From positions 1 to 41,850 of IMG/VR virus record IMGVR_UViG_3300012317_000001: DNA of 41,850 bases; one strand, written 5' to 3'. Shown one piece after another: positions 3,101 to 17,412 of the stretch; positions within the stretch are counted from its first letter, which is position 1, and each line of letters starts with the position of its first letter. Made by a program: the position numbers and the translations under genes. Origin of the DNA: a virus. The notes under the pieces were generated by a model. The model did not search any database and was not told where the DNA came from. It saw only the letters and a list, made by a program, of their open reading frames with translations.

Positions 3101-5624
3101 TAAGCTGAAAAAATTCTTATCTAATGTATGGCGTAGCATTAAGAATACTACTGTTAAACTTGCTAAAGGTCTATGGTCAGGCGTGAAAGCTATATGGAAC
3201 ACTTTATCGCGATTTACACACCGTATATTCAATAAAATCAAGAATTTCATGAGTAGTGTTTGGCGTAATATTAAAAATACAACAGTAAGGTTAGCTAAAG
3301 CGCTATGGTCTGGTGTCAAAAATACATTTAATAGCTTATACAACGGAACTAGAAGAATTTTTAATAAAGTAAAAAACTTTATGAGTAATATTTGGCGTAA
3401 CATCAAGAATACAACAGTAAGATTAGTAAAATCTCTATGGAGTAGCGTCAAAGGTACTTGGAGTAGTTTATCAAATGGAACGCGTAACATTTTCAACAAA
3501 GTTAAAGGTTTTATGTCTAATACTTGGAGAAGCATCAAGAATACAACAGTTAACATGGCTAAAGGACTATGGAACAGCGTTCGAAGAACATTCAATAATA
3601 TGAATAGTGGACTTAAAAATATTATTGGGAAAATCAAAGGCCATATCACTGGAATGGTTACGGCCGTTAAAAGAGGTTTAAACAAATTAATTGATGGTGT
3701 TAACTGGGTAGCTAAAAAATTAGATATGCCTAAGTTACCTAAAATAAAACTCTCTACTGGTACAGAAAGTACACATACCCAAAATTATGTAACTAATGGT
3801 AAATTAAATCGAAATACATTAGCAACTGTAGGAGATAAAGGTCCAGGCAATGGTCCAGGTGGTTTTAGACATGAAACAGTTATTCCGCCTAGCGGTAAAG
3901 CTTTCATCACACCAGCTACAGATACAACAATTCCACTTGCCAAAGGAACTCGTATTTTAAATGGCGCACAAACGCATAGTTTACTTAATAAACCACAATT
4001 TAACAGCGGTACAATACCGAAATTTAGTTTGGGTACAACATTCGCCAATTTACTTGGTGGTGGTAAAAAGCCAAAAAAACATAAAAAAGATGACAATTTA
4101 GTGGGCGACGTAGCTCAAAAAACTAAAGACGGCGTTAAAGCTATGACTGGTAAAGTTGTAGAAGGTGGAAAAGCAGTCGTTGGCAGTGCATTGAACGCTG
4201 CTAAAAAAGGTAAAGATTGGCTATCTGATAAAATTGGTGATGTACTAGATTGGATAGAAAAGCCAAAAAAATTATTAGAAAAAGTATTTGAAGGTTTCGG
4301 TATTAACATGGCTTCATTTGGCATACCTAAAGGTGCTGAATTACCATTTAACCTTATGAAAGGTATGTTTAAAAAATTAAAAGAAGCAGCCGTTAATAAA
4401 GTTAAAGAATGGTTTGAACAAGCTGGCGGCGGCGACGGTGGATATATCGACCTTTCAAAAGGTATCAACTTTGGATTTGCAAGGACAGCTGCAGAAGCAC
4501 GAGCTAAAGGCTATCCTTTCAACAGACCTCATCACGGATTAGATATCAACTATAAACACGATAAAGTTTATTCAACTATGAGTGGTACAGCAAAAGCCTT
4601 TACTGGTTGGAGTAGTGGCTTTGGTAATCACATGGAAGTCACTAACGGTAACTTAAAATCTATTTACGGCCACTTACACAAACTAGCCTTTCACGGTACT
4701 AAAAAAGTAAGACCGGGTACACTTTTAGGCGTATCCGGTGGCGATCCTAGAGAGGACGGACAAAACGCTGGTAGTTCAACAGGACTTCATTTACATTACG
4801 AAATGCAACGTAACGGACGACCGTTTGACCCTACTAAATGGCTAAAAACACATAACGGTGGTGGAAGTCAAAACAAATCAGCAAGCAAGTGGAAAGGCGA
4901 TATCAAACGAGCAGCTAAGAAAATGAAAGTTAATTTATCTAACAGAGAATTAAACGGTATCGTTGCACAAATTGCTAGAGAGTCCAATGGTAACGCTGGA
5001 GTAACACAAGGTAACATCGGCGATATTAATAACTTACGTGGAACACCAGCGCAAGGTTTATTACAATACGTACCAAGTACTTTCAACTCGTACAAGGTTA
5101 AAGGACATGGCAATATTAAAAATGGTTACGACCAATTACTTGCGTTCTTTAATAACTCTAACTGGCGCAGAGATTTACCTTATGGTAAAAGTGGTTGGGG
5201 GCCAACTGGTTCAAGACGTTTTGCCACAGGTGGTTTAATCAAATCTTCAGGTTGGTACAACATTGCAGAAGGTGGTTATCCTGAATGGATAATTCCTACT
5301 GATCCATCTAGACGCAATGACGCTATGAAGATGTTGGCACTTGCAGCACAAGATATAAATAAGAAAAGTAGCACTAGAGGAAATAAACGACCTAATAACT
5401 TAAAAACACCAAATAACCTTTATTCAAATAATAATGATGAGTTATTACTACAAATGATTGAACAACAACAACAACAAATTAATTTATTAATGGAAATTGC
5501 TAGAAGTAATAGAGGTATTGAAAGTAAAGACAATAATGTCTATCTTGATGGTCGTTCGTTAAATAAAAACAACAATGAACATCAAGCATTAAATATGAAA
5601 ACTAGATTAATGGGAGGTCGTTAA
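1..5624 (+). CDS. Tail tape measure protein, continuation (C-terminal about 1870 aa); true start is the GTG at 40727 across the window junction
   Basis: Track ORF 54..5624. Reading frame is open from base 1 with first full codon at 3, in frame with 40727..41850 after subtracting 41723. Product is alpha-helical and Ala/Gly-rich with 44-aa tandem repeats. Near the C-terminus is a peptidase M23-like block (HHGLDINY...GNHMEV...GLHLHYE). After it is a lytic-transglycosylase-like block (NGIVAQIARESNGNAGVTQGN...GLLQYVPSTFNSY). Confidence 0.85.
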   Translation, partial: ELNTQLNQTTQAHNRLEMEQKQGISSMAQIRAKMSQFNDTLSLSRSNLSRAGESVKAYGNHLNTLKTNMSEQRVVLRELIAQYNHVATAQGRDSQEARELSSAITQQKIKMNELESELDQTTQSYKQLETEQRNAQRLASSGFGRSIQSVNKYKDSIRNVGSTMRSVGSTSMLYMTMPAVAGMGTAIKSSIDWEQALAGVAKTTNMSGSELNKMGNEITKMSNTMPFAATEIAGVAEAAGQLGIKKQDITSFTRTMMNLGVATNLTADEAATEFARFANAANMPIKDVDRLGSTVVALGNSTATTEKEIVEMAQRLAGAGAQAGFSSDEIMSVSAAMSSVGIEAEAGGTAMTQIWNKMTKAVAEGGDTLDSFAKTAGVSGKEFAQIWENNPSKALSMFVKGLGETEGGAKGVLKALDDVGIKGIREADTIRRMANNHQVLDKALKTGSEGWKENSALTNEANIRYETMGSKLKMLKNTFINFARTIGDAVAPIVSFLADKLTGLFEHLQGTSNATKIAIAAFTLLGAAIPPLIVATGVLAHSIVGISEAMTLLNATKGGAKFFSLFDGGIKGILPKIGQLLTKIPLIGGLMTALTGPVGIAVAAIAGIGTAFVVAYKKSETFRNIVNSVIDPVINSFKKMWNVVKSIFNAMKQLLSGNFLPTLDLLSKIMPKETATKLTMRLLQIRQLFVDAFNSIFNFAKEIGKKLTDFWAKNGDTVIQALKNIGNFFVDFFVYLKELIGPNLRDLGNLVRVIFMNVLVPVIKGAMNIILGIMKFVWPFIKVLVVDTWNNIKNIIRAALDVILGIVKIFSGIFTGQWKLVWEGVKQVFKGALVLIWNLIQLWFIGKILKVVKIFGGFFKSVISKSFNGVKTIIGTVLRFIWNIISTIFRKILSITQTIFGAVRRFISVVFHAIKNVVVNSVKAIFNGVKRWFTAVKNITHTIFSALKQFMYKIWTSIKNKVVSLAKALSNGVKNIFNSLSKVTRSIFNKLKSFMSNVWRNIKNTVIKLAKGLWNGIKATWNILSKVTRSIFNKLKKFLSNVWRSIKNTTVKLAKGLWSGVKAIWNTLSRFTHRIFNKIKNFMSSVWRNIKNTTVRLAKALWSGVKNTFNSLYNGTRRIFNKVKNFMSNIWRNIKNTTVRLVKSLWSSVKGTWSSLSNGTRNIFNKVKGFMSNTWRSIKNTTVNMAKGLWNSVRRTFNNMNSGLKNIIGKIKGHITGMVTAVKRGLNKLIDGVNWVAKKLDMPKLPKIKLSTGTESTHTQNYVTNGKLNRNTLATVGDKGPGNGPGGFRHETVIPPSGKAFITPATDTTIPLAKGTRILNGAQTHSLLNKPQFNSGTIPKFSLGTTFANLLGGGKKPKKHKKDDNLVGDVAQKTKDGVKAMTGKVVEGGKAVVGSALNAAKKGKDWLSDKIGDVLDWIEKPKKLLEKVFEGFGINMASFGIPKGAELPFNLMKGMFKKLKEAAVNKVKEWFEQAGGGDGGYIDLSKGINFGFARTAAEARAKGYPFNRPHHGLDINYKHDKVYSTMSGTAKAFTGWSSGFGNHMEVTNGNLKSIYGHLHKLAFHGTKKVRPGTLLGVSGGDPREDGQNAGSSTGLHLHYEMQRNGRPFDPTKWLKTHNGGGSQNKSASKWKGDIKRAAKKMKVNLSNRELNGIVAQIARESNGNAGVTQGNIGDINNLRGTPAQGLLQYVPSTFNSYKVKGHGNIKNGYDQLLAFFNNSNWRRDLPYGKSGWGPTGSRRFATGGLIKSSGWYNIAEGGYPEWIIPTDPSRRNDAMKMLALAAQDINKKSSTRGNKRPNNLKTPNNLYSNNNDELLLQMIEQQQQQINLLMEIARSNRGIESKDNNVYLDGRSLNKNNNEHQALNMKTRLMGGR
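2690..3620 (+). repeat. About 7 tandem 132-bp (44-aa) in-frame repeats inside the tape measure gene
   Basis: Recurring aatgtatggcg[ct]a[ag]cat[ta]aa[ag]aatac units at about 2991, 3123, 3255, 3387 and 3519. Protein repeat is SIFNKLKxFMSNVWRNIKNTxVKLAKGLWxGVKxxWNxLSxxTR. Boundaries are approximate. Confidence 0.8.
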
Positions 5625-6471: not shown

Positions 6472-8397
6472 ATGTCAAGGAAAGTTATTGATGGTATTTG
6501 GGATAGAGAAAATTTAAAAAATATTAATGATAATTTTTATGAATTATTTCAAAGTAAGGGAGCGCAAGTATCTTTATTAAGAAATTTAATGGGAAGCACT
6601 GATAATCTACTTGCAGTTCCACCATTAGGAAAGAGTATAAAATGGTATGCCTCTGAAACAAATGATCCATATTATAATGGGATAATGAGTTTAAAAACAA
6701 TTCCATCTATTTCAATGAATCCAGATACATCTTTTGATATTGATGCATCTGGATATTTTTTCTATTCATTGAAGGCAGTAGACAAATTAGCACCTGGTCA
6801 AGTTATGTCTTTGTTAGTTTATACAACAAGTAAAGATAATAACTTTAAATTAGAATATATTTTTAGTGACGTAAATGGGTCTCGTTTGCAAGTGAACACA
6901 GTTAATGAAACTTCTACGGGAGTTTACCTAGAAGAAGGTATCGAAATACCAGCTAATACAAATAAAATAGACATTCGTTTAGATAATAGAAGTGCTATGT
7001 CTACAACTAAAATTAATAAATTTATAGTCATTGCAAGTGAAAAATTCGGGTTATTTAATTTTGATTCAAATCAACTTAAATATGATTTGGATGTTCAGTC
7101 AAGTGAAATTAATGCTATTAAAGAAAAAATATCCAGTAATAAAGAATCGAATGAGAAAGGTGTTACAATCTCATATCATCAACCGTCTGAGTTTAATTTA
7201 AAAGATCATATTCTGAAAGGTAAAATTTACACTGATGGTAAAAGCAAATTCAGAACTGATTTAGACGTTTCAACTCTTAAAAATCCTACAGGGCAAACGT
7301 ATTATGTTTCAGGAAATGGGTCTAATTCAAATGATGGGCTAAGTGAAAGTAATCCACTAGCTGATATATATGCAGCGATGAAAAAAACAGATGTAAACAC
7401 AATCATGATTGACGGTAATTATACTTATTATCGTTCTTCTGGATACGCAATGGGCGAAGTAAGTAATAACATTAATATTATTGGATATAACGGCAAGCCA
7501 CGTATTATAGCTGCAGATTCATTAAACTTCAGTAAAACAAGTGGATATACAAATGTGTATCAAGCAAGTCGTTCGGCAGTTTCTCGTATTATAAATGTAA
7601 ACGAAACAGATGATAACGGTGATTATATTGAATTAAAAAAAGTAAATAGTATAAGTGAAGTCGAACAAAGTCCAAATTCTTGGTTTACTTCTTCGGGTAT
7701 TGTTTATGTAAATTATTCTGATGAACAAATCGACAATCATATTGCTTGTTTAATGAATATCAACTTACTTAGAATTTCTGGAGATTACAATGTATATTTA
7801 GAAAATCTTGAGTTTGTAGGCGGAAGTAGAAATATCCGATATGAAACATCAACAGGATCGTTAGTGATGAACGATGTTAAATTATCTTATTCATCACAAT
7901 CAAATGGTAACGGTTTGGAAATGGTTGGTGGCACTTACGTAATATCTTATAAATGTGAATCTTCTAAACAAATGATGGACGGATTTAATTATCATAAAGG
8001 AGCTAATGGAGAGCTTCCATATTTCATAGAGATTGATTGTATCGGTCGAGATAATGGGTTTGAACAAGGGACAGGTGGTAGTAAATCAAATAACGGATCA
8101 ACTGCACATGATGGTATTAAAGGTATACGTCTAAATGGATTATATGCACGTAATGACGGAGGGAATGTAGCAGATGTAAATGTTGGCACGCAAACTTGGA
8201 ACTTAGGTGTGGTGGCTTTTGATTCATATCAAAATTCAGATTTCCAAATTGCAGCTGGAGGTCAACAATTTTTAGATAGTTGTGAAGGGTTTGGTAGTCA
8301 ATATTCTATACAATCATTAAATGAAGAAGATAAATTTTGTTTAAGAAGAATGAAAATACAGTCAGAAAGTGTACTAGGTACAAAAACGATATATTGA
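6472..8397 (+). CDS. Tail protein with pectin/pectate-lyase-like right-handed beta-helix domain (candidate polysaccharide depolymerase or tail fibre)
   Basis: Track ORF, 641 aa. The central motif TYYVSGNGSNSNDGLSESNPLADIYAAMKKTDVNTIMIDGNYTY matches the characteristic N-cap of pectate-lyase-fold beta-helix proteins (YYVSxxGsDsNdGs...P..TI..A.....TI.l.GtY). The downstream sequence is Asn/Gly/Ser-rich. Confidence 0.55.
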   Translation: MSRKVIDGIWDRENLKNINDNFYELFQSKGAQVSLLRNLMGSTDNLLAVPPLGKSIKWYASETNDPYYNGIMSLKTIPSISMNPDTSFDIDASGYFFYSLKAVDKLAPGQVMSLLVYTTSKDNNFKLEYIFSDVNGSRLQVNTVNETSTGVYLEEGIEIPANTNKIDIRLDNRSAMSTTKINKFIVIASEKFGLFNFDSNQLKYDLDVQSSEINAIKEKISSNKESNEKGVTISYHQPSEFNLKDHILKGKIYTDGKSKFRTDLDVSTLKNPTGQTYYVSGNGSNSNDGLSESNPLADIYAAMKKTDVNTIMIDGNYTYYRSSGYAMGEVSNNINIIGYNGKPRIIAADSLNFSKTSGYTNVYQASRSAVSRIINVNETDDNGDYIELKKVNSISEVEQSPNSWFTSSGIVYVNYSDEQIDNHIACLMNINLLRISGDYNVYLENLEFVGGSRNIRYETSTGSLVMNDVKLSYSSQSNGNGLEMVGGTYVISYKCESSKQMMDGFNYHKGANGELPYFIEIDCIGRDNGFEQGTGGSKSNNGSTAHDGIKGIRLNGLYARNDGGNVADVNVGTQTWNLGVVAFDSYQNSDFQIAAGGQQFLDSCEGFGSQYSIQSLNEEDKFCLRRMKIQSESVLGTKTIY

Positions 8398-11396: not shown

Positions 11397-11696
11397 ATGG
11401 AAAGTATTATTGCATTTGCAACAGTAATTTCAGTTATCACAATCGCATTAACACAATTAGTTAAGCAATCTGGTGTGCCTAAAAACATTGTACCTTTAAT
11501 TGCTATTGGTATTGGTATCGTTTTAGGTGGTATTACAGCGTTTATTCCTGAAATTATTACCGAGTTATCAATTGGTGGTCGATTGCTTGCTGGCTTAATA
11601 AGTGGACTAATGGCAACTGGTATTTGGGAAACAGTTAGACCACGTACAGGTTCAACTAAAGATAAAAATAATAAAATTGGTGGAGGTCGTGGATAA
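11397..11696 (+). CDS. Holin
   Basis: Track ORF, 99 aa. Two or three hydrophobic helices (IIAFATVISVITIALTQLV, IVPLIAIGIGIVLGGITAFI) and a charged C-terminus. RBS is ataaggagtg. Overlaps the endolysin start by 1 nt. Confidence 0.85.
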   Translation: MESIIAFATVISVITIALTQLVKQSGVPKNIVPLIAIGIGIVLGGITAFIPEIITELSIGGRLLAGLISGLMATGIWETVRPRTGSTKDKNNKIGGGRG

Positions 11697-13405
11697 TGGC
11701 AGAAAAATGGAATGGCGTTCCAGTTAAATATGATTTCTTACCTATTGGAACACGTAGAAGTGGGCAACCTTTAACAAGTAAGAAACCTTTATTTGCAGTA
11801 GCACATGACACAGGAAACCCTCACACAACAGCACAAACAAATGTAAACTATTATAGAAATACTTACATGGAAAGTTGGGCTACCGTTGCAAGCGCTCATA
11901 TCTTTGTTGACGATAAAGAGTGCATTGTATGTATTCCAGTAACAGAGAAAGCGTGGCATGTAATATATAACACGCCTACCGATAACCAATGGTACAATGC
12001 TGACGCTAACGACGTTGCGTTTGGTGTAGAGGGTAGTTATTTTCCGGGCAACATTCAACGTTCACGTAAGTCGTTAGATAATATGGCACGTGTGTTGGCT
12101 TATTTATGTAACTATTGGGGAATTGATTATAAAACCGAAGTGCCGGGACACCAAGATATTCAAGCTGATAAGATCGATCCCGGTAATTTATTAGAGGCTT
12201 GCGGATATTCACGCAACGTTAAAAATTTAGATAAACAGATCGCTAAATATATTAATGGCATTAAACCCGCACCGAGCAAGAAACTATCAACAAAAACAAG
12301 TAAAAAGCCGACACCTTCGCCTCAAAGTGTGGTTAAGTATAAAGAAGCAATCGAATACATGCATAGCTTGAAAGGACAATATATCGACTTTGATAAAGAG
12401 TTTGCTTATCAATGTGCAGATGTCGTTGTAGACTTTATCTATCATGTAACAGGCGGCGTACGTTTCATTGGCAACGCTAAAGAATTACACACTAAAAACG
12501 CCATGCCTAAAGGTTGGAAGGTTGTTAAAAATACAAGAGATTACGTGCCACCTATTTGTGCAATTCCCATTTATACGACAGGAGTTTACAAAAAGTGGGG
12601 ACATACTGGTTTAGTTTGGGATAACAGCGGCGGTACAAAAACATTTACAATCTTAGAGCAAAACTTTGATAGTAAAGCAAATTCACCAGCTAAATTACGT
12701 GAAGATGATTACACAGGCTTAACACATTTCATTGTGCCAGACTTCGCTGATGATAGCGTAGACTTAACAGATATTAAAGAAGTGAAAAAATCAGAACGTA
12801 AATCTAACAGTTCAATTTCAGTAAATAAAAAACCTCCTAAAAAATTAACATGGAGTAACCAACCATATTTCAAAGCAATTGCAGATAATGCAGGTGTCAC
12901 TATTTGTAGACCTAACCACAATAATGTGATGGTTACAACAAATGAAGAATATAAACCTGGAGACGTATTCTATGTATATGAAATTCGTGATGGTTGGGCT
13001 AGAGTTTACAGTCCAAGCAATGACGGTTATGTATGGTATGAACGCCTAATCGTTAAAGATATTTATAAAACAGCAGGTGGTAAAAAGTTTGCGAAAAAAG
13101 ATGATAAACAAGCAGTAGCGCAACGTAATATTCTTGCAGATACAACAGGTTTAAAAGTGAATAGTATTCCGCCTTTAAACATGAAGAAGTCATCTAAAGC
13201 TAAATTTAGAGCGCGTGTCGATTATTATGGTGCATCATTAGTTAAGTTCAAAGGTAAAGAGTGGTACGTGACAAACAATACTTATAGAGCAGGATATGAT
13301 AAATTTTATATCTTTGAAATTAAAAATGGTTGGTGTCGTGTTTATTCTAGAAATAACAATGGTTGGATATGGCATGAACGTCTAAGAATTGTAGAAGTAT
13401 ATTAA
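11696..13405 (+). CDS. Endolysin: N-terminal amidase_2/PGRP-like domain, central CHAP domain, two C-terminal SH3b-type repeats
   Basis: Track ORF, 569 aa. N-terminal AVAHDTGNPHTT...HIFVDD...GHQDIQADKIDPG is an amidase_2-like Zn amidase block. Central YQCADVV...GHTGLVWDN gives the CHAP Cys and His. Two repeats follow: (GDVFYVYEIRDGWARVYSPSNDGYVWYERL) and (YDKFYIFEIKNGWCRVYSRNNNGWIWHERL). Confidence 0.85.
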   Translation: MAEKWNGVPVKYDFLPIGTRRSGQPLTSKKPLFAVAHDTGNPHTTAQTNVNYYRNTYMESWATVASAHIFVDDKECIVCIPVTEKAWHVIYNTPTDNQWYNADANDVAFGVEGSYFPGNIQRSRKSLDNMARVLAYLCNYWGIDYKTEVPGHQDIQADKIDPGNLLEACGYSRNVKNLDKQIAKYINGIKPAPSKKLSTKTSKKPTPSPQSVVKYKEAIEYMHSLKGQYIDFDKEFAYQCADVVVDFIYHVTGGVRFIGNAKELHTKNAMPKGWKVVKNTRDYVPPICAIPIYTTGVYKKWGHTGLVWDNSGGTKTFTILEQNFDSKANSPAKLREDDYTGLTHFIVPDFADDSVDLTDIKEVKKSERKSNSSISVNKKPPKKLTWSNQPYFKAIADNAGVTICRPNHNNVMVTTNEEYKPGDVFYVYEIRDGWARVYSPSNDGYVWYERLIVKDIYKTAGGKKFAKKDDKQAVAQRNILADTTGLKVNSIPPLNMKKSSKAKFRARVDYYGASLVKFKGKEWYVTNNTYRAGYDKFYIFEIKNGWCRVYSRNNNGWIWHERLRIVEVY

Positions 13406-13444
13406 TATGTTATAATAAAAAACACGATTTTCATTCCATTCACT

Positions 13445-13474
13445 GGGGACAAGTTTAGTGCTTGTTCCTTTTTT
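13445..13474 (+). terminator. Hairpin plus T-run: ggggacaag / cttgttcct, loop tttagtg, then tttttt
   Basis: Read directly from the sequence. Immediately precedes the second TGTTATAAT. Confidence 0.5.
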
Positions 13475-13707
13475 ATGTTATAATCAAATAGAAATTGCGG
13501 TACACATCTGCGGAGTGTACTTGAGGTTAACTGTTACTGACGGTTATCTCTTTTGACCTATCTACCATGTTGTAGAAAAGGACTACGATAACGCAATAAT
13601 CTATTTTGCGTTATCAGATTATGTTATAATTAATTCACAAGGGTTTTACACCCAGTTAAAAACTTAATGATCTTTTGGAACAACTCATTTGAGCATGTTC
13701 CCTTCCA

Positions 13708-13738
13708 AGCCACCTAACATGTCACTGGGTGGCTTTTT
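13708..13738 (+). terminator. Hairpin plus T-run: agccacc / ggtggct, 13-nt loop, then ttttt
   Basis: Read directly from the sequence. Immediately precedes the fourth TGTTA(C)AAT element. Confidence 0.5.
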
Positions 13739-13813
13739 ATGTTACAATAAAGATACCCAGTTTGTGATAATTAAAATAATTATCAGATTTATAAGAGGCA
13801 ACACTATATTCTA

Positions 13814-13843
13814 ACCACGTTCTTATGAGCGTGGTGTTTTTTT
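13814..13843 (+). terminator. Hairpin plus T-run: accacg / cgtggt, 10-nt loop, then ttttttt
   Basis: Read directly from the sequence. Confidence 0.45.
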
Positions 13844-13858
13844 ATATAAACATATTAT

Positions 13859-13887
13859 TTGCTAAATATACCCCTATGGGGTATAAT
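13859..13887 (+). promoter_or_regulatory. Near-consensus sigma-A promoter TTGCTA-N17-TATAAT with an inverted repeat (atacccc tat ggggtat) over the spacer and -10
   Basis: ttgcta at 13859-13864, a 17-nt spacer, tataat at 13882-13887. The 7-bp-arm palindrome at 13868-13884 is operator-like. Confidence 0.55.
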
Positions 13888-13893
13888 ACTCTT

Positions 13894-14662
13894 ACTGGCA
13901 TAACAGATAAACCACAGTGATGTGGTGAAAGGTGCAGTTTGACAAACGGCCGGGTGGAAACATCTAACTTATGCAATTGTGTAAAACTAAAGGTTATCAT
14001 CTAGGTGGTAACACTAATGTGAGTAAAGCATTACTCCCTATGGCAAATGCTCGGGGATTGGGAAAAGGCCTAAGTACCATTAATGCCGTCGAACATTAGA
14101 TTTTTACATAAAGGTATGATAGTCCGAACCTATCAAGTAAGGGCGTGTACCATGATTTGTATCTGTGGTGGCGGACAGTAATACAATGAGAATGGCTAGT
14201 ACGATGATAAGGAACGTCATGGCGAAGTGAAGCATTTCGTTATTCAAAAGATAATGAAACTTCTGGGGAAGCACTTCGTCGGTCAGAACAATTAATTTTA
14301 CAATTGGCTAAATACAATGATATGTATTGGAAATTAAAACAAGCGAAAGCCTTCCCCCGTTAGTGACGAAAGCACCCTAAGACTTCACACGAAAGTGAAT
14401 GAAGTTTGTTATCGTTTCGCAAAAACGGTAGCAATCTATCGCAAAGTAAAGCAGTCAAGGGACTTGCAAACCTTTGATTAATTGAAATCGGTAGAGTAGT
14501 CTCTAACGCAATGAGTGATTGGCCATTACCAATCGGGTGTAGATAGTACGTCGGGGACGGCGTGGATAAGAGAAGAACATATAATGTCTCTAAAGCTATC
14601 TAAAGTAAGGTGTAGTCTCAGCCTATACATAAACCGTACCTTAATTGGTGCGGTCTTTTTTT
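13894..14662 (+). ncRNA. Candidate large structured non-coding RNA of about 770 nt between the promoter at 13859 and the terminator at 14633 (class unknown)
   Basis: No ORF of 60 aa or more in any frame across 13406-14713. GC is visibly higher than in the AT-rich flanks (ggccgggtgg, gctcggggattggg, cgtcggggacggcgtgg). Many local helices, several capped by GNRA loops (cacGAAAgtg, gtgacGAAAgcac), and longer-range pairings such as ggcgaagtg / cacttcgtc. Bounded by promoter and terminator in the same orientation. Confidence 0.3.
14633..14662 (+). terminator. Rho-independent terminator closing the long ORF-free transcript unit
   Basis: accgtacc / ggtgcggt (one G-U pair), loop ttaatt, then c ttttttt. 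Confidence 0.55.
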
Positions 14663-14673
14663 ATACATAAAAA

Positions 14674-14707
14674 TAGTGTTACAAGCACTACCTACCCTGT
14701 AACACTA
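14674..14707. other. Candidate attP core: perfect 10-bp inverted repeat tagtgttaca / tgtaacacta around a 14-bp spacer, 6 nt from the integrase stop
   Basis: Read directly. Serine-integrase attP sites are short, dyad-symmetric and usually adjacent to int. This could also serve as the int transcript terminator hairpin. Confidence 0.3.
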
Positions 14708-14713
14708 CTACCA

Positions 14714-16111
14714 TTAAAATTTAAAAGTAATCTCCCTTATATTAAGAGTATTGACCTTACCGTTCTCATTATACTTTCTAGGAACAAAGTCAAACGCAAT
14801 CTCTTTAACCGTACTCAAGATTAACTCCTCTTTTTGCTCTACATTTAACTTACTCCAACCTTTAATCAAGATGTCATCAATCATATTTAATTGTTCATTC
14901 GTAACTGTTTGTGTACTTTCCAATTTCGCACCAGCACGTTCAACTTCATCAAGTATCTCTTTAGTTTCGTCCATCAAACTAAAATACTCATCATCTTCAA
15001 TGTAACCTAATGACCATGATCTAGTAAGTTTCTCACGTTGTTTCATAATCTTATCTATATCATAATCTAGTTTAGGTGTACTTTCTTCTACAATATCCAC
15101 TTTAAATTTATTTGTATCATATGTTTTGAGTAACTTTATAAACTTATCTTCTACTTCGCTCTCATTGAATGAAATAGTTTGAACGTTTTTATTTTTTGAA
15201 CACGTATCACATTTATAGCGTCTTACTTCGTAAGAATATCCTTTTTTATCCGTTATCTTACCAGCGTATAGATGTAGCTTATTATGGCACTGTGGACACG
15301 TTAGAACACCTCTAAAGATAGCGTGATGTTTTACCTTACTTCTATGTGTTTTGTTCTCTATAACGTCTATAATGCGTTTATAATCACTTTCTGATAACAC
15401 TGGCTCATGCGTATTCTCAATATACATATCTCCATACTTAGTATGACCACGTAATACTGGGTTTTTCATCAACCTAATAATAGAAGTCCTATTCCATTTC
15501 TTAACCTTCGGTACATTGACCTTCTTCAAATTCATCTGTCTAGCAATTTCACTACCTGATACACCATGTTTGAATTGCTCAACAAGATAATCAATTACCC
15601 ACTTATGCTTATTAGGTACAAGTTTCCCATCTACATTGTCATAGCAAAAGGGAGCTTCTCTAATATAGTTACCTTCTCTTACTGCTGCACGACTACCAAA
15701 CAATGCACGTTCACGTATTGTAGCACGTTCCCACTCAGCCATAGCACCTACCATAGTGATAAATAACTTACCAATGGCAGTTGTAGTATCAAATACTTCA
15801 GTAGCACTCTTGAACGCCACGTTATACTTCTCAAACGTTTCTAGCATTTCAAGTAAGTCTTTAACATTACGTGTTAATCTATCTAACTTATAAACTAACA
15901 CTAGATCATAATTTTCTAGATTATCCATAATACGCTTTAATGCTGGTCTATTCATCGAGCCACCACTTACACCAGCGTCAGTAAATACTTTGAAATCGTG
16001 CCAATTCTGAACTTCGCAAAAGGCTTTTAATTTCCGTTCTTGCTCATGGATAGAATAACCTTCCGTTGCTTGCTCATAGGAACTCACTCTTGTGTAGATT
16101 GCCACTTTCAT
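14714..16111 (-). CDS. int: Large serine recombinase (integrase)
   Basis: Track ORF 14714..16120. The better start is ATG 16109-16111 with RBS aaaggagtgacatatATG. N-terminus MKVAIYTRVSSYEQ...GYSI..Q is the resolvase catalytic domain with Ser. A long recombinase domain with Cys-rich zinc-ribbon-like motifs (CPQCHNKL, CDTCSKNK) and a coiled coil follows; 465 aa. Confidence 0.9.
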   Translation of the reverse strand: MKVAIYTRVSSYEQATEGYSIHEQERKLKAFCEVQNWHDFKVFTDAGVSGGSMNRPALKRIMDNLENYDLVLVYKLDRLTRNVKDLLEMLETFEKYNVAFKSATEVFDTTTAIGKLFITMVGAMAEWERATIRERALFGSRAAVREGNYIREAPFCYDNVDGKLVPNKHKWVIDYLVEQFKHGVSGSEIARQMNLKKVNVPKVKKWNRTSIIRLMKNPVLRGHTKYGDMYIENTHEPVLSESDYKRIIDVIENKTHRSKVKHHAIFRGVLTCPQCHNKLHLYAGKITDKKGYSYEVRRYKCDTCSKNKNVQTISFNESEVEDKFIKLLKTYDTNKFKVDIVEESTPKLDYDIDKIMKQREKLTRSWSLGYIEDDEYFSLMDETKEILDEVERAGAKLESTQTVTNEQLNMIDDILIKGWSKLNVEQKEELILSTVKEIAFDFVPRKYNENGKVNTLNIREITFKF

Positions 16112-16158
16112 ATATGTCACTCCTTTAAAAAATGATGCTACCTAAGAATTTATCGCAT

Positions 16159-16186
16159 AAAAAAAGACACCTATATAAAATAGGTG
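16159..16186 (-). terminator. Terminator for the leftward cI operon, upstream of the int gene
   Basis: Stem cacctat / ataggtg, loop ataaa. The minus strand then reads ttttttt. Confidence 0.45.
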
Positions 16187-16348
16187 CCACTTATAATTAT
16201 AAGATTTCAAGTTTACTATTCAAATATGAATAGCGAATATGAAAAAAGTTTAGGAATAATTCCCTAATATATTGTTATAGTAGCACCTTATTCATTTTTT
16301 GGCAAAGAAAGTGATACACATAAAGTGCGTACCACATATCAATAAAAT

Positions 16349-16492
16349 TTAAAATATAGATGTTACTATCCACTTCAACAATTCCCAGAGCAGCATAATT
16401 GCAAATATGAATCCTAAACAACCTATCCCCATTCCTGGAATTGCTAATAAACAAGTATAGAAGTTAGTACAACCGTCATTTTGTTTAGCCAT
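16349..16492 (-). CDS. 47-aa hydrophobic membrane peptide (MAKQNDGCTNFYTCLLAIPGMGIGCLGFIFAIMLLWELLKWIVTSIF)
   Basis: Strong RBS aaggagatagaaATG on the minus strand. Under 60 aa so absent from the track. Co-directional with and downstream of cI. Confidence 0.5.
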   Translation of the reverse strand: MAKQNDGCTNFYTCLLAIPGMGIGCLGFIFAIMLLWELLKWIVTSIF

Positions 16493-16543
16493 TTCTATCT
16501 CCTTTATTTTTATAATTTATATTAAAACGCTAAAAGGACGCAG

Positions 16544-16684
16544 TTAATCTTTATAAACATCTTTATTTTCAGTTAACGGTATATCGTTTTTTACCATATA
16601 TTCCAATTGTTTCATACTATATACTGGGACTTTCACTAATTCGTCCCAGTGTTTTGGTTCTTCGTCATAATATTCCCATTCCAT
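16544..16684 (-). CDS. 46-aa acidic protein (MEWEYYDEEPKHWDELVKVPVYSMKQLEYMVKNDIPLTENKDVYKD)
   Basis: RBS ggaggttttattATG begins 11 nt after the cI stop, suggesting translational coupling. Under 60 aa. Confidence 0.5.
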   Translation of the reverse strand: MEWEYYDEEPKHWDELVKVPVYSMKQLEYMVKNDIPLTENKDVYKD

Positions 16685-16695
16685 AATAAAACCTC

Positions 16696-17412
16696 CTATA
16701 AAATAACTTTTCCAACTAATCTAACACTTTCATTCTCGTAAAAGTGTAAGTCACGATAATCTTTGTTTAACGAAACAAGCGTCAGCCTATTTTCTCCCAC
16801 ATGAACTTTCTTAATATAAGACTCTCCGTTGATAATGAATACACCTATTTGACCATTTTTTATATTATTAGATTTCTCTACAAAGATAATTTCTTTATCA
16901 CTAAACATTGGCTCCATTGAATTACCATTAACTTGCAAAGCAATATCATGTGGAGGGATGTAACCTTTGACGTTAACTTTAAAAATTGGTTCATCAAAGA
17001 TATGTTCACCAGTACCAGCAGACACATAACCATTAACGTCAGTTAATGTTGTATTTTCATTTTTGTATGTATCTAGGTCAATCACATTATCATCAGTAGA
17101 GTTTTGCAATTCTAACTGATGATTAGCGAAATTTAATACATTATGTTGGCGTGGAGGTGTGAGTTGATTGTAAACAGTTGTAATATCATTGTCTTCTTTA
17201 TAGGTGGTATCAATGTCGCTTTTACCAACCCCGAAGACGTCAGCTATTCTTTGAATTACACCATGTGAAGGGTTGGAACGTAAATTTAAATAATCACTTA
17301 ATGTAGATGGTTTAATATTAATTAATTCAGCTAATTGTTTTTGAGTCATTTCAGCTTCTTTTATATATTTCCTTATATTATTAGCGATTATTTTGTTTCT
17401 TTCTTTATTCAT
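16696..17412 (-). CDS. cI: CI-like repressor (HTH_XRE N-terminal domain with S24 LexA-type autopeptidase C-terminal domain)
   Basis: Track ORF, 238 aa. The HTH reads QKQLAELINIKPSTLSDYLN. C-terminal GNSMEP (the Ser) ...GQIGVF...VGKVIL (the Lys) is the S24 signature. Confidence 0.85.
   Translation of the reverse strand: MNKERNKIIANNIRKYIKEAEMTQKQLAELINIKPSTLSDYLNLRSNPSHGVIQRIADVFGVGKSDIDTTYKEDNDITTVYNQLTPPRQHNVLNFANHQLELQNSTDDNVIDLDTYKNENTTLTDVNGYVSAGTGEHIFDEPIFKVNVKGYIPPHDIALQVNGNSMEPMFSDKEIIFVEKSNNIKNGQIGVFIINGESYIKKVHVGENRLTLVSLNKDYRDLHFYENESVRLVGKVIL

Follow-up and report, generated by a model that had tools for sequence, protein, structure and literature searches.

The 41.85-kb viral sequence analysed here over its full length (IMG/VR record IMGVR_UViG_3300012317_000001, hereafter the window) contains a gene-free slot of ~1.3 kb at 13406-14713, between the stop codon of an upstream endolysin gene and that of a convergent large serine recombinase gene downstream, and this slot very probably carries a full-length GOLLD RNA as a mobile cassette with its own promoter and terminator, preceded by a series of small-RNA genes. 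By its sequence, the main gene of the slot is a full-length GOLLD of the Firmicute ('Streptococcus agalactiae-type') sub-form at ~13894-14662 on the + strand, which, counted from the predicted start at ~13894, measures ~731 nt to the last conserved hairpin and ~769 nt with the terminator. An earlier reading of the nucleotide sequence by eye (the original prediction) had proposed a large structured non-coding RNA (ncRNA) of the ROOL/GOLLD kind at this place, and the proposal holds for GOLLD. GOLLD itself is a known family, reportedly since 2009, and what is new here is its unusual host and position, together with the apparently undescribed small-RNA families beside it.

Family membership and domains of the GOLLD RNA

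The whole window was scanned against the Rfam 15 covariance models, as the original prediction had suggested, and 13300-14800 was rescanned permissively at E values up to 10, which returned GOLLD, well above the curated threshold, as the sole Rfam family above threshold in the window. The RF02032 match, representing the conserved 3′ domain, occupies 14220-14624 (+ strand, 405 nt), scores 261.6 bits against a gathering cut-off of 150 with an E value of 1.5e-73, and spans model positions 1-416 of 416. ROOL, raiA, OLE, group I and II introns, other large RNAs and ribozymes gave no match, either in 13300-14800 at the permissive setting or in the whole window at the gathering score. Since no ribozyme matched and the class of the RNA is a described one, the earlier suggestion of an unrecognised ribozyme does not hold. 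A role in lysogeny regulation, also suggested there, gained no support in the analysis. ROOL is likewise a large, ornate, cage-forming RNA of phages and prophages that is often found near tRNAs, but its sequence and fold are unrelated to those of the RNA in the window. The elevated G+C content noted in the original prediction is confirmed: the GOLLD RNA (13894-14662) has 0.403, compared with 0.335 in the window as a whole and 0.325 in the upstream mini-units.

The covariance-model alignment contains few non-canonical pairs, and the two strands of the pseudoknot or kissing interaction (14358-14367 and 14499-14508) form 9 of 10 pairs while differing from those of Streptococcus GOLLD in a compensated way. 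The L21 loop contains the palindrome UUGCAA at 14464-14469, and the L24 loop is a GGGA tetraloop of the GNRA type at 14554-14557. Seventeen model positions are absent from the window and correspond to one of the two hairpins within P21 (P21b), which S. agalactiae GOLLD is also reported to lack (PMC12990946); Streptococcus sequences align to the window without a gap at this site. A variable linker at ~14282-14357 aligns to the unpaired model positions 63-138 and is replaced by unrelated sequence in a related prophage contig described below (L030), and such variation among relatives is as expected of the disordered interior linker of GOLLD (PMC12286853).

GOLLD RNAs are made up of a 3′ region conserved in all members and a more weakly conserved, variable 5′ region, with the disordered linker inside (PMC12286853), and the RF02032 model covers the conserved 3′ domain alone. 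Given this limit of the model, the preceding 326 nt (13894-14219, + strand) could be a separate RNA or a leader, with GOLLD confined to 14220-14624, a reading that also draws on the lack of blastn similarity between the 5′ part and environmental GOLLD loci. The opening motif of the 5′ part is not shared by these environmental loci either, which is consistent with the known variability of the region. However, this segment opens with GGCAUAAC..AGAUAAAC, a GUGA-capped hairpin at 13911-13924 and GAAAG, and the corresponding arrangement (GGCwTArC..AGATAAwC, a GNRA-capped hairpin and GAAAG) lies 314 nt before the 3′ domain in the window and 313 nt before it in Streptococcus phage Javan636, whose GOLLD 3′ domain also scores above the Rfam threshold. 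Between these two sequences the stem of the opening hairpin is wholly exchanged, reading CCACA/UGUGG in the window and CUGUG/CACAG in Javan636. The 5′ domains of seven sequences were aligned, namely the window, its relatives L030 and L031, and the Streptococcus-phage GOLLDs Javan636, LYGO9, Javan565 and phiARI0746, and RNAalifold returned 58 consensus pairs, 38 of them compensated by changes on both sides; scored on this same alignment, pairing holds in 95.6% of cells against 35-44% in slid controls, with a covariation score of 0.755 against 0.07-0.16. In addition, neither a terminator nor a promoter was found between the 5′ and 3′ parts, and the whole block travels together in L030. Taking these observations together, we regard a separate 5′ RNA as highly improbable, and on the comparisons above the 5′ 326 nt are part of the same predicted RNA as the 3′ domain.

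Predicted promoter and terminator, and spread of the cassette

We propose that GOLLD is transcribed from a sigma-70 promoter of its own and ended by its own terminator. The candidate promoter at 13859-13887 (+ strand) combines a −35 element TTGCTA and a −10 element TATAAT separated by 17 nt, with a predicted start at ~13894, and its score of 10/12 makes it the best sigma-70 match of the region. The candidate intrinsic terminator at 14633-14662 (+ strand) consists of an 8-bp stem with five G-C pairs followed by a T-run, and is kept in both L030, with stem and loop changes, and L031. A palindrome, ATACCCC-TAT-GGGGTAT (7+3+7), overlaps the promoter at 13868-13884 and is unique in the window; these three elements had been named in the original prediction and were recovered as described. 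As a conserved operator the palindrome is unsupported, since it is degenerate in L030.

The same RNA occurs in two IMG/VR prophage contigs, L030 and L031. The latter is ~99% identical to the window and scores 263.4 bits with RF02032, and L030, a prophage related to S. epidermidis phages, scores 255.5 bits. L030 and the window have just two pieces in common, 13866-14664 (94.2% identity) and the small-RNA unit A1 described below. The conserved block extends from just upstream of the −10 element (13866) to the T-run of the terminator (14664), which is the footprint expected of an autonomous promoter-gene-terminator cassette, and its edges coincide with the promoter and terminator limits that had been predicted from the window. 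Phage 'morons' are autonomous promoter-gene-terminator cassettes. The GOLLD block likewise has its own predicted promoter and terminator, is inserted between the late operon and the candidate phage attachment site (attP) and occurs in unrelated prophages, its cargo being RNA only. The presence of such a block in an otherwise unrelated staphylococcal prophage marks it as a mobile RNA 'moron', in which the predicted promoter, GOLLD and the predicted terminator have moved between unrelated prophages as a self-contained unit.

A GOLLD copy without tRNA context, at an atypical genomic position, lacking the P21b hairpin and belonging to a staphylococcal type found in only three sequences might instead be a decaying passenger, that is, a non-functional recombination remnant that is neither expressed nor assembles. 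However, the match spans the full model with few non-canonical pairs, the S. agalactiae GOLLD that also lacks P21b does assemble (PMC12990946), and the predicted promoter and terminator are intact. Moreover, identity of the RNA among the three prophages stays at 94-99% despite divergence of the linker and flanks, and in the final 3′ hairpin a G-to-A change turns a U-G pair into a U-A pair and thereby retains the pairing, so that we consider decay very unlikely.

A distant blastn search against 50,697 phage genomes returned Streptococcus phage Javan636 as the sole GOLLD match, and identity to Streptococcus GOLLD RNAs amounts to ~73% over 150 nt. Scanning IMG/VR for Firmicute-type GOLLD yielded 105 loci, among which only L030 and L031 are of the staphylococcal type. 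A 3′-motif pattern run over species-representative genomes found no further staphylococcal GOLLD, its matches being confined to a Flavobacterium metagenome-assembled genome and Mycobacterium colombiense, and a 21-mer searched for in metagenomes hit one high-GC contig, by chance, and no staphylococcal GOLLD. Pattern and blastn searches of this kind can miss divergent copies, and the gapped genome-scan patterns AGAGTAGT...GGTGTA and GTGGANAAG... were too strict on test loci; within these searches, the staphylococcal type comprises three sequences, the window and the two IMG/VR contigs. No report of a staphylococcal GOLLD was found in the literature searched.

Beyond its GOLLD cassette, L030 also carries Rfam matches to SprC (157 bits) and S35 (74 bits) at 6700-6839 and 3105-3306 (minus strand), the SprC match lying 300 nt beyond GOLLD. 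The part of L030 beyond ~7100 has no phage match and is probably host DNA or the end of an island.

Proposed small-RNA mini-units upstream of GOLLD

Upstream of the GOLLD promoter (13406-13858), the slot is organised as a row of short units. The extended −10 element TGTTATAAT occurs in exactly three copies in the window, at 13408, 13476 and 13622, all within 222 nt of the slot, and a fourth extended −10 element at 13740 reads TGTTACAAT, in agreement with the four elements originally listed. A longer junction, TTTATGTTATAAT (at most one mismatch), has three matches, all inside the slot, against 0.68 expected. The borders of the modules repeat a T-run followed by ATGTTATAAT, a combination that may act as an extended −10 promoter and also as short homology for module exchange. 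Hairpins with T-runs lie on the + strand at 13445-13469, 13721-13733 (full stem 13707-13735), 13814-13835 and 14633-14654, and a consensus scan of 13000-15000 counted six terminator-like sites where 1.0 ± 1.0 would be expected; four of the six are + strand sites within the slot, which bears out the hairpin and T-run structures noted earlier by eye. Promoter-like consensus hits in the region total six against 7.8 expected, which is not above chance; the non-random features are the clustered identical TGTTATAAT elements and the excess of terminators.

Unit 0 (13405-13475, + strand) contains the junction repeat with TGTTATAAT at 13408-13416, followed by a hairpin (13445-13469) and T-run as the late/lysis operon's terminator, and the same segment also follows the endolysin in phages IME1318_01 and StB12. 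Unit A1 (13476-13555, + strand) starts with an extended −10 element (13476-13484) and would produce a small RNA of ~65 nt, with a 5′ tail AAAUAGAAAUUGCGG, a hairpin at 13499-13521 whose loop, AUCUGCGGA, is conserved, and a second, terminator-like hairpin at 13523-13550 with UUUU behind it (fold z = −2.9). Homologues of A1 are present in phages of at least eight Staphylococcus and Mammaliicoccus host species, with 85-93% identity in temperate phages of S. epidermidis, S. aureus, S. pseudintermedius, S. warneri and S. haemolyticus and in 133-kb Mammaliicoccus phages. Across an alignment of 11 sequences, the two hairpins are 98% paired with four compensated pairs, against 38-50% paired in slid controls, and the first hairpin shows three compensated positions below a nearly constant 9-nt loop. 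The 5′ tail has no antisense match in the phage itself beyond chance.

In the Mammaliicoccus phages phi6255 (L039:401-461) and phi36 (L040:401-462), A1 starts ~14 nt after tRNA-Pro within a tRNA cluster and without the promoter junction, suggesting co-transcription and processing in these phages. A 93% match to A1 at 44298-44368 of OR842880.1 ('Xanthomonas phage SU1') belongs to a record that also matches other parts of the window and L030, and that may be mislabelled or chimeric.

Unit A2 (13555-13620, + strand) has no −10 element of its own and would probably be carried on the A1 read-through transcript. The tandem array of mini-units proposed originally is thus retained here as conserved modules with covarying hairpins, but the unit beginning at 13476, previously taken as one, consists of two modules, A1 and A2. 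The latter combines an invariant core, ACCUAUCUACC..GUAGAAAAGG (helix 13557-13581), with a covarying hairpin at 13587-13615 (fold z = −4.8). An alignment of eight sequences, Kayvirus and phage K among them, is paired in 100% of cells (slid controls, 30-43%); helix 2 has four compensated pairs, and all eight sequences keep an invariant core helix. The core recurs in ~24 Sepunavirus genomes and in Kayvirus phages. Core and hairpin together were located in virulent Kayvirus/Sepunavirus phages at L046 (phage K, KF766114, ~14380-14440, minus strand), L041-L044 and L026 (2506-2560), the last being a Sepunavirus locus with no Rfam match. In phage K, A2 lies ~135 nt upstream of tRNA-Met (gt001) in a promoter-proximal leader that is reported as transcribed (Finstrlova et al. 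2022, PMC9241854). The tRNA-linked ncRNAs of phage K share the A2 core and hairpin with the window, where by contrast A2 stands beside GOLLD with no tRNA; the long ncRNAs of phage K have been likened to GOLLD by position only (PMC9241854).

A tRNA-like stretch between A2 and tRNA-Met in Kayvirus, which resembles an acceptor and T-arm by eye, is not called by ARAGORN. As a candidate RNA anti-CRISPR or CRISPR-repeat mimic, A2 was rejected at chance level, its best alignment to the staphylococcal type III-A repeat (a query whose 3′ 24 nt are confirmed in the literature) having a score of 16 that 96 of 2089 window tiles equal. A 14/15 match to the middle of this repeat (TACCAACCCCGAAGA) lies at ~17222-17236 inside the cI-like repressor gene and, at an estimated ~0.08 expected by chance, is probably a coincidence.

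Unit B (13619-13741, + strand) has its extended −10 element at 13622-13630 and would yield an RNA of ~100 nt whose 5′ hairpin (13641-13653) is conserved and is followed by a middle hairpin (13677-13701) and a terminator (13707-13735 and T-run). Homologues in HOB 14.1.R1, BE20 and L031 share the 5′ part and differ in their 3′ halves, and the 5′ hairpin contains one compensated pair (GGGU/ACCC to AGGU/ACCU). Unit C (13737-13845, + strand), the weakest of the units, begins with TGTTACAAT (13740-13748) and would yield an RNA of ~90 nt in which an AT-rich hairpin (13765-13785) precedes the terminator (13814-13835 and T-run); the fold has z = −4.0. It is common to StB12 and L031, and its terminator is found also in HOB, IME-SA4, StB27 and BE21. 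In BE20 (L032, OQ355699.1), six or seven such modules occupy the same slot at 1500-2215 and are annotated as hypothetical proteins of 30-50 aa, which are probably gene-caller artefacts.

A1, A2, B and C match no Rfam family, Spr and other staphylococcal small RNAs included, and the sub-threshold hits of the mini-units are at chance level (SprX, 17 bits against 80; tsr26, 21 bits against 141). A literature search by sequence string for A1 and A2 found nothing, and the four units appear to be undescribed RNA families. The Spr RNAs of S. aureus prophages and pathogenicity islands (e.g., SprC, RF02890) are likewise small RNA genes with transcription of their own that ride as cargo at the ends of staphylococcal prophages, but the units of the window match no Spr family.

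Every mini-unit starts with the same junction sequence and ends in a terminator-like hairpin, and inter-phage identity is often 85-93%, compatible with recent exchange. Together with a promoter total not above chance and the few homologues of units B and C, this could mean that the mini-units are not RNA genes but stacked terminators and promoters, acting as transcriptional insulators that separate late operon, cargo and convergent integrase from one another, along with recombination scars, and that their likeness reflects recent horizontal exchange and not selection acting on an RNA. However, pairing in the A1 hairpin that is not a terminator is kept through its three compensated positions, below a constant 9-nt loop, across phages of different genera and lifestyles, and the A2 core does not vary between temperate siphoviruses, Kayvirus and Sepunavirus, with covariation in its flanking hairpin. 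In addition, A1 stands behind tRNA-Pro with no promoter junction in the Mammaliicoccus phages, and the A2 homologue of phage K lies in the leader reported as transcribed (PMC9241854). We therefore consider an array of insulators and scars unlikely, and the mini-units, compared in sequence, are conserved modules shared mosaically among many Staphylococcus and Mammaliicoccus phages. As small-RNA genes, they would number three to four (A1 with A2, B and C), each independently promoted from a TGnTATAAT element and ended by a hairpin, and their families would be shuffled among staphylococcal phages at the T-run and ATGTTATAAT junction.

Genomic setting and possible role of the RNA island

The slot is flanked upstream by the endolysin (11696-13405; Amidase_2 and SH3b_T domains) and downstream by the convergent large serine recombinase, or integrase (14714-16120; Resolvase, Recombinase and Zn_ribbon_recom domains), for which no identical protein is on record, two start choices having been compared. 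There is no open reading frame (ORF) of at least 60 aa on either strand of 13406-14713, as the original prediction had stated, and this is the longest such stretch in the window; the second-longest internal one (16121-16695, 575 nt), which separates the integrase from the cI-like repressor, holds ORFs of 46-59 aa only. The window resembles temperate staphylococcal phages, and the best explanation is a coagulase-negative Staphylococcus host, with the slot as a non-coding RNA island of a temperate phage. In IME-SA4, the nearest sequenced phage, the equivalent slot holds two small protein genes and a different integrase. A perfect 10-nt inverted repeat with a 14-nt centre, TAGTGTTACA / TGTAACACTA (14674-14707, no strand assigned), lies between the GOLLD terminator and the integrase stop codon, is identical in L031, whose integrase end matches, and is plausibly the attP core of the adjacent serine integrase.

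Small ORFs of 31-59 aa are present in the slot, and the BE20 record annotates proteins over the homologous units, so that the slot might encode small proteins (micro-ORFs or type I toxin peptides), RNA structure being incidental. We find this scarcely credible, given that the six longest of these ORFs have no Pfam match, that in PH15 the 32-aa frame crossing A1 is interrupted by stops and a 1-nt indel, that substitutions track base-pairing rather than codon position, and that the covariance-model match explains 14220-14624. Small 'hypothetical proteins' are annotated inside the GOLLD RNA of LYGO9 as well (L047, JX409894.1, 646-858), and are probably gene-caller artefacts.

The window GOLLD shares with Streptococcus prophage GOLLD the 3′ domain, the length of the 5′ domain, the opening motif, the helices, the absence of P21b, the variable internal linker and residence in a phage. 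By contrast, its host genus is Staphylococcus, and it occupies a cargo slot between lysis genes and the candidate attP with its own predicted promoter and terminator, whereas in Streptococcus phages GOLLD stands in the segment ahead of the terminase or portal gene, preceded in LYGO9 by an ArpU-like regulator gene. It also differs from GOLLD elsewhere in having no neighbouring or embedded tRNA, a frequent but not universal trait of the family: all 13 comparison loci have tRNAs and/or tmRNA nearby, tRNA genes lie close to GOLLD in LYGO9, Javan636 and phiARI0746, and 13300-14800 gave no Rfam tRNA hit at E values up to 10. In four low-GC viral contigs (environmental loci L007, L016, L006 and L012), phage-borne tmRNA genes were observed 1-3 kb from GOLLD, beside tRNAs.

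GOLLD RNAs were recently reported to form cages larger than the ribosome. In the published structures they assemble without protein, S. agalactiae GOLLD (~700 nt) as a 12-mer and environmental env-38 GOLLD (833 nt) as a 14-mer; the hollow cages enclose the linker and are held together by kissing loops as well as by tetraloop and A-minor contacts (PMC12286853, PMC12990946). The sequence prerequisites for assembly are present in the window (the L21 palindrome, the GNRA tetraloop of L24 and the kissing strands), suggesting that its RNA may form a cage with a similar number of copies. Judged by its homology with GOLLDs of solved structure, the RNA would adopt a two-domain fold, and 10-14 copies of it would associate by kissing loops and A-minor contacts to give a hollow homo-oligomeric cage, with the variable linker pointing inward. 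According to work cited in PMC12286853, as far as that account goes, GOLLD expression rises with phage production or lytic growth in another host, and links with the ribosome and tRNA have been proposed (PMC12286853). The most likely role of the RNA would be a service to the phage in lytic growth, linked with small RNAs, tRNAs or translation.

Homologues of the mini-units elsewhere lie in tRNA and long-ncRNA islands, beside tRNA-Pro or tRNA-Met, in temperate and virulent staphylococcal phages. It is conceivable, though quite improbable in our judgement, that the slot is a mobile 'RNA-only island' whose parts cooperate, with A1, A2, B and C replacing the tRNAs that otherwise flank GOLLD as cage clients, cargo or assembly partners.

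Several points weigh against the preferred reading of the slot as a GOLLD cassette preceded by small-RNA genes. ARAGORN found no tRNA in the 41.85-kb window, though a tRNA neighbourhood is typical of GOLLD, and the promoters and terminators are known as consensus matches only. Units B and C rest on few sequences, and terminator function alone could explain why the second hairpin of A1 and the last hairpins of B and C are conserved. Complementarity between the units and GOLLD does not exceed that of shuffled units in RNAduplex, which is a crude test of the relation. The 5′-domain structure was both derived from and scored on one alignment of seven sequences, three of which, the staphylococcal rows, hardly differ from one another, so the covariation there is largely that of one deep Staphylococcus-to-Streptococcus split together with variation among the streptococcal sequences. 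Finally, we know of no function established for GOLLD in any system.

The copy in the window shows that GOLLD need not be associated with tRNA genes. In addition, the small-RNA modules beside it are common to temperate phages and to the therapeutic Kayvirus and Sepunavirus phages, and some GenBank records annotate them as tiny hypothetical proteins. Given that the predicted cassette is compact, has its own promoter and terminator, lacks tRNA neighbours and resides in a temperate phage of a genetically tractable, medically relevant genus, it would be a clean object for deletion, transplantation and pull-down experiments, and if the slot is indeed an RNA-only island of cooperating parts, it would provide a genetically tractable staphylococcal system in which to dissect the function of GOLLD.

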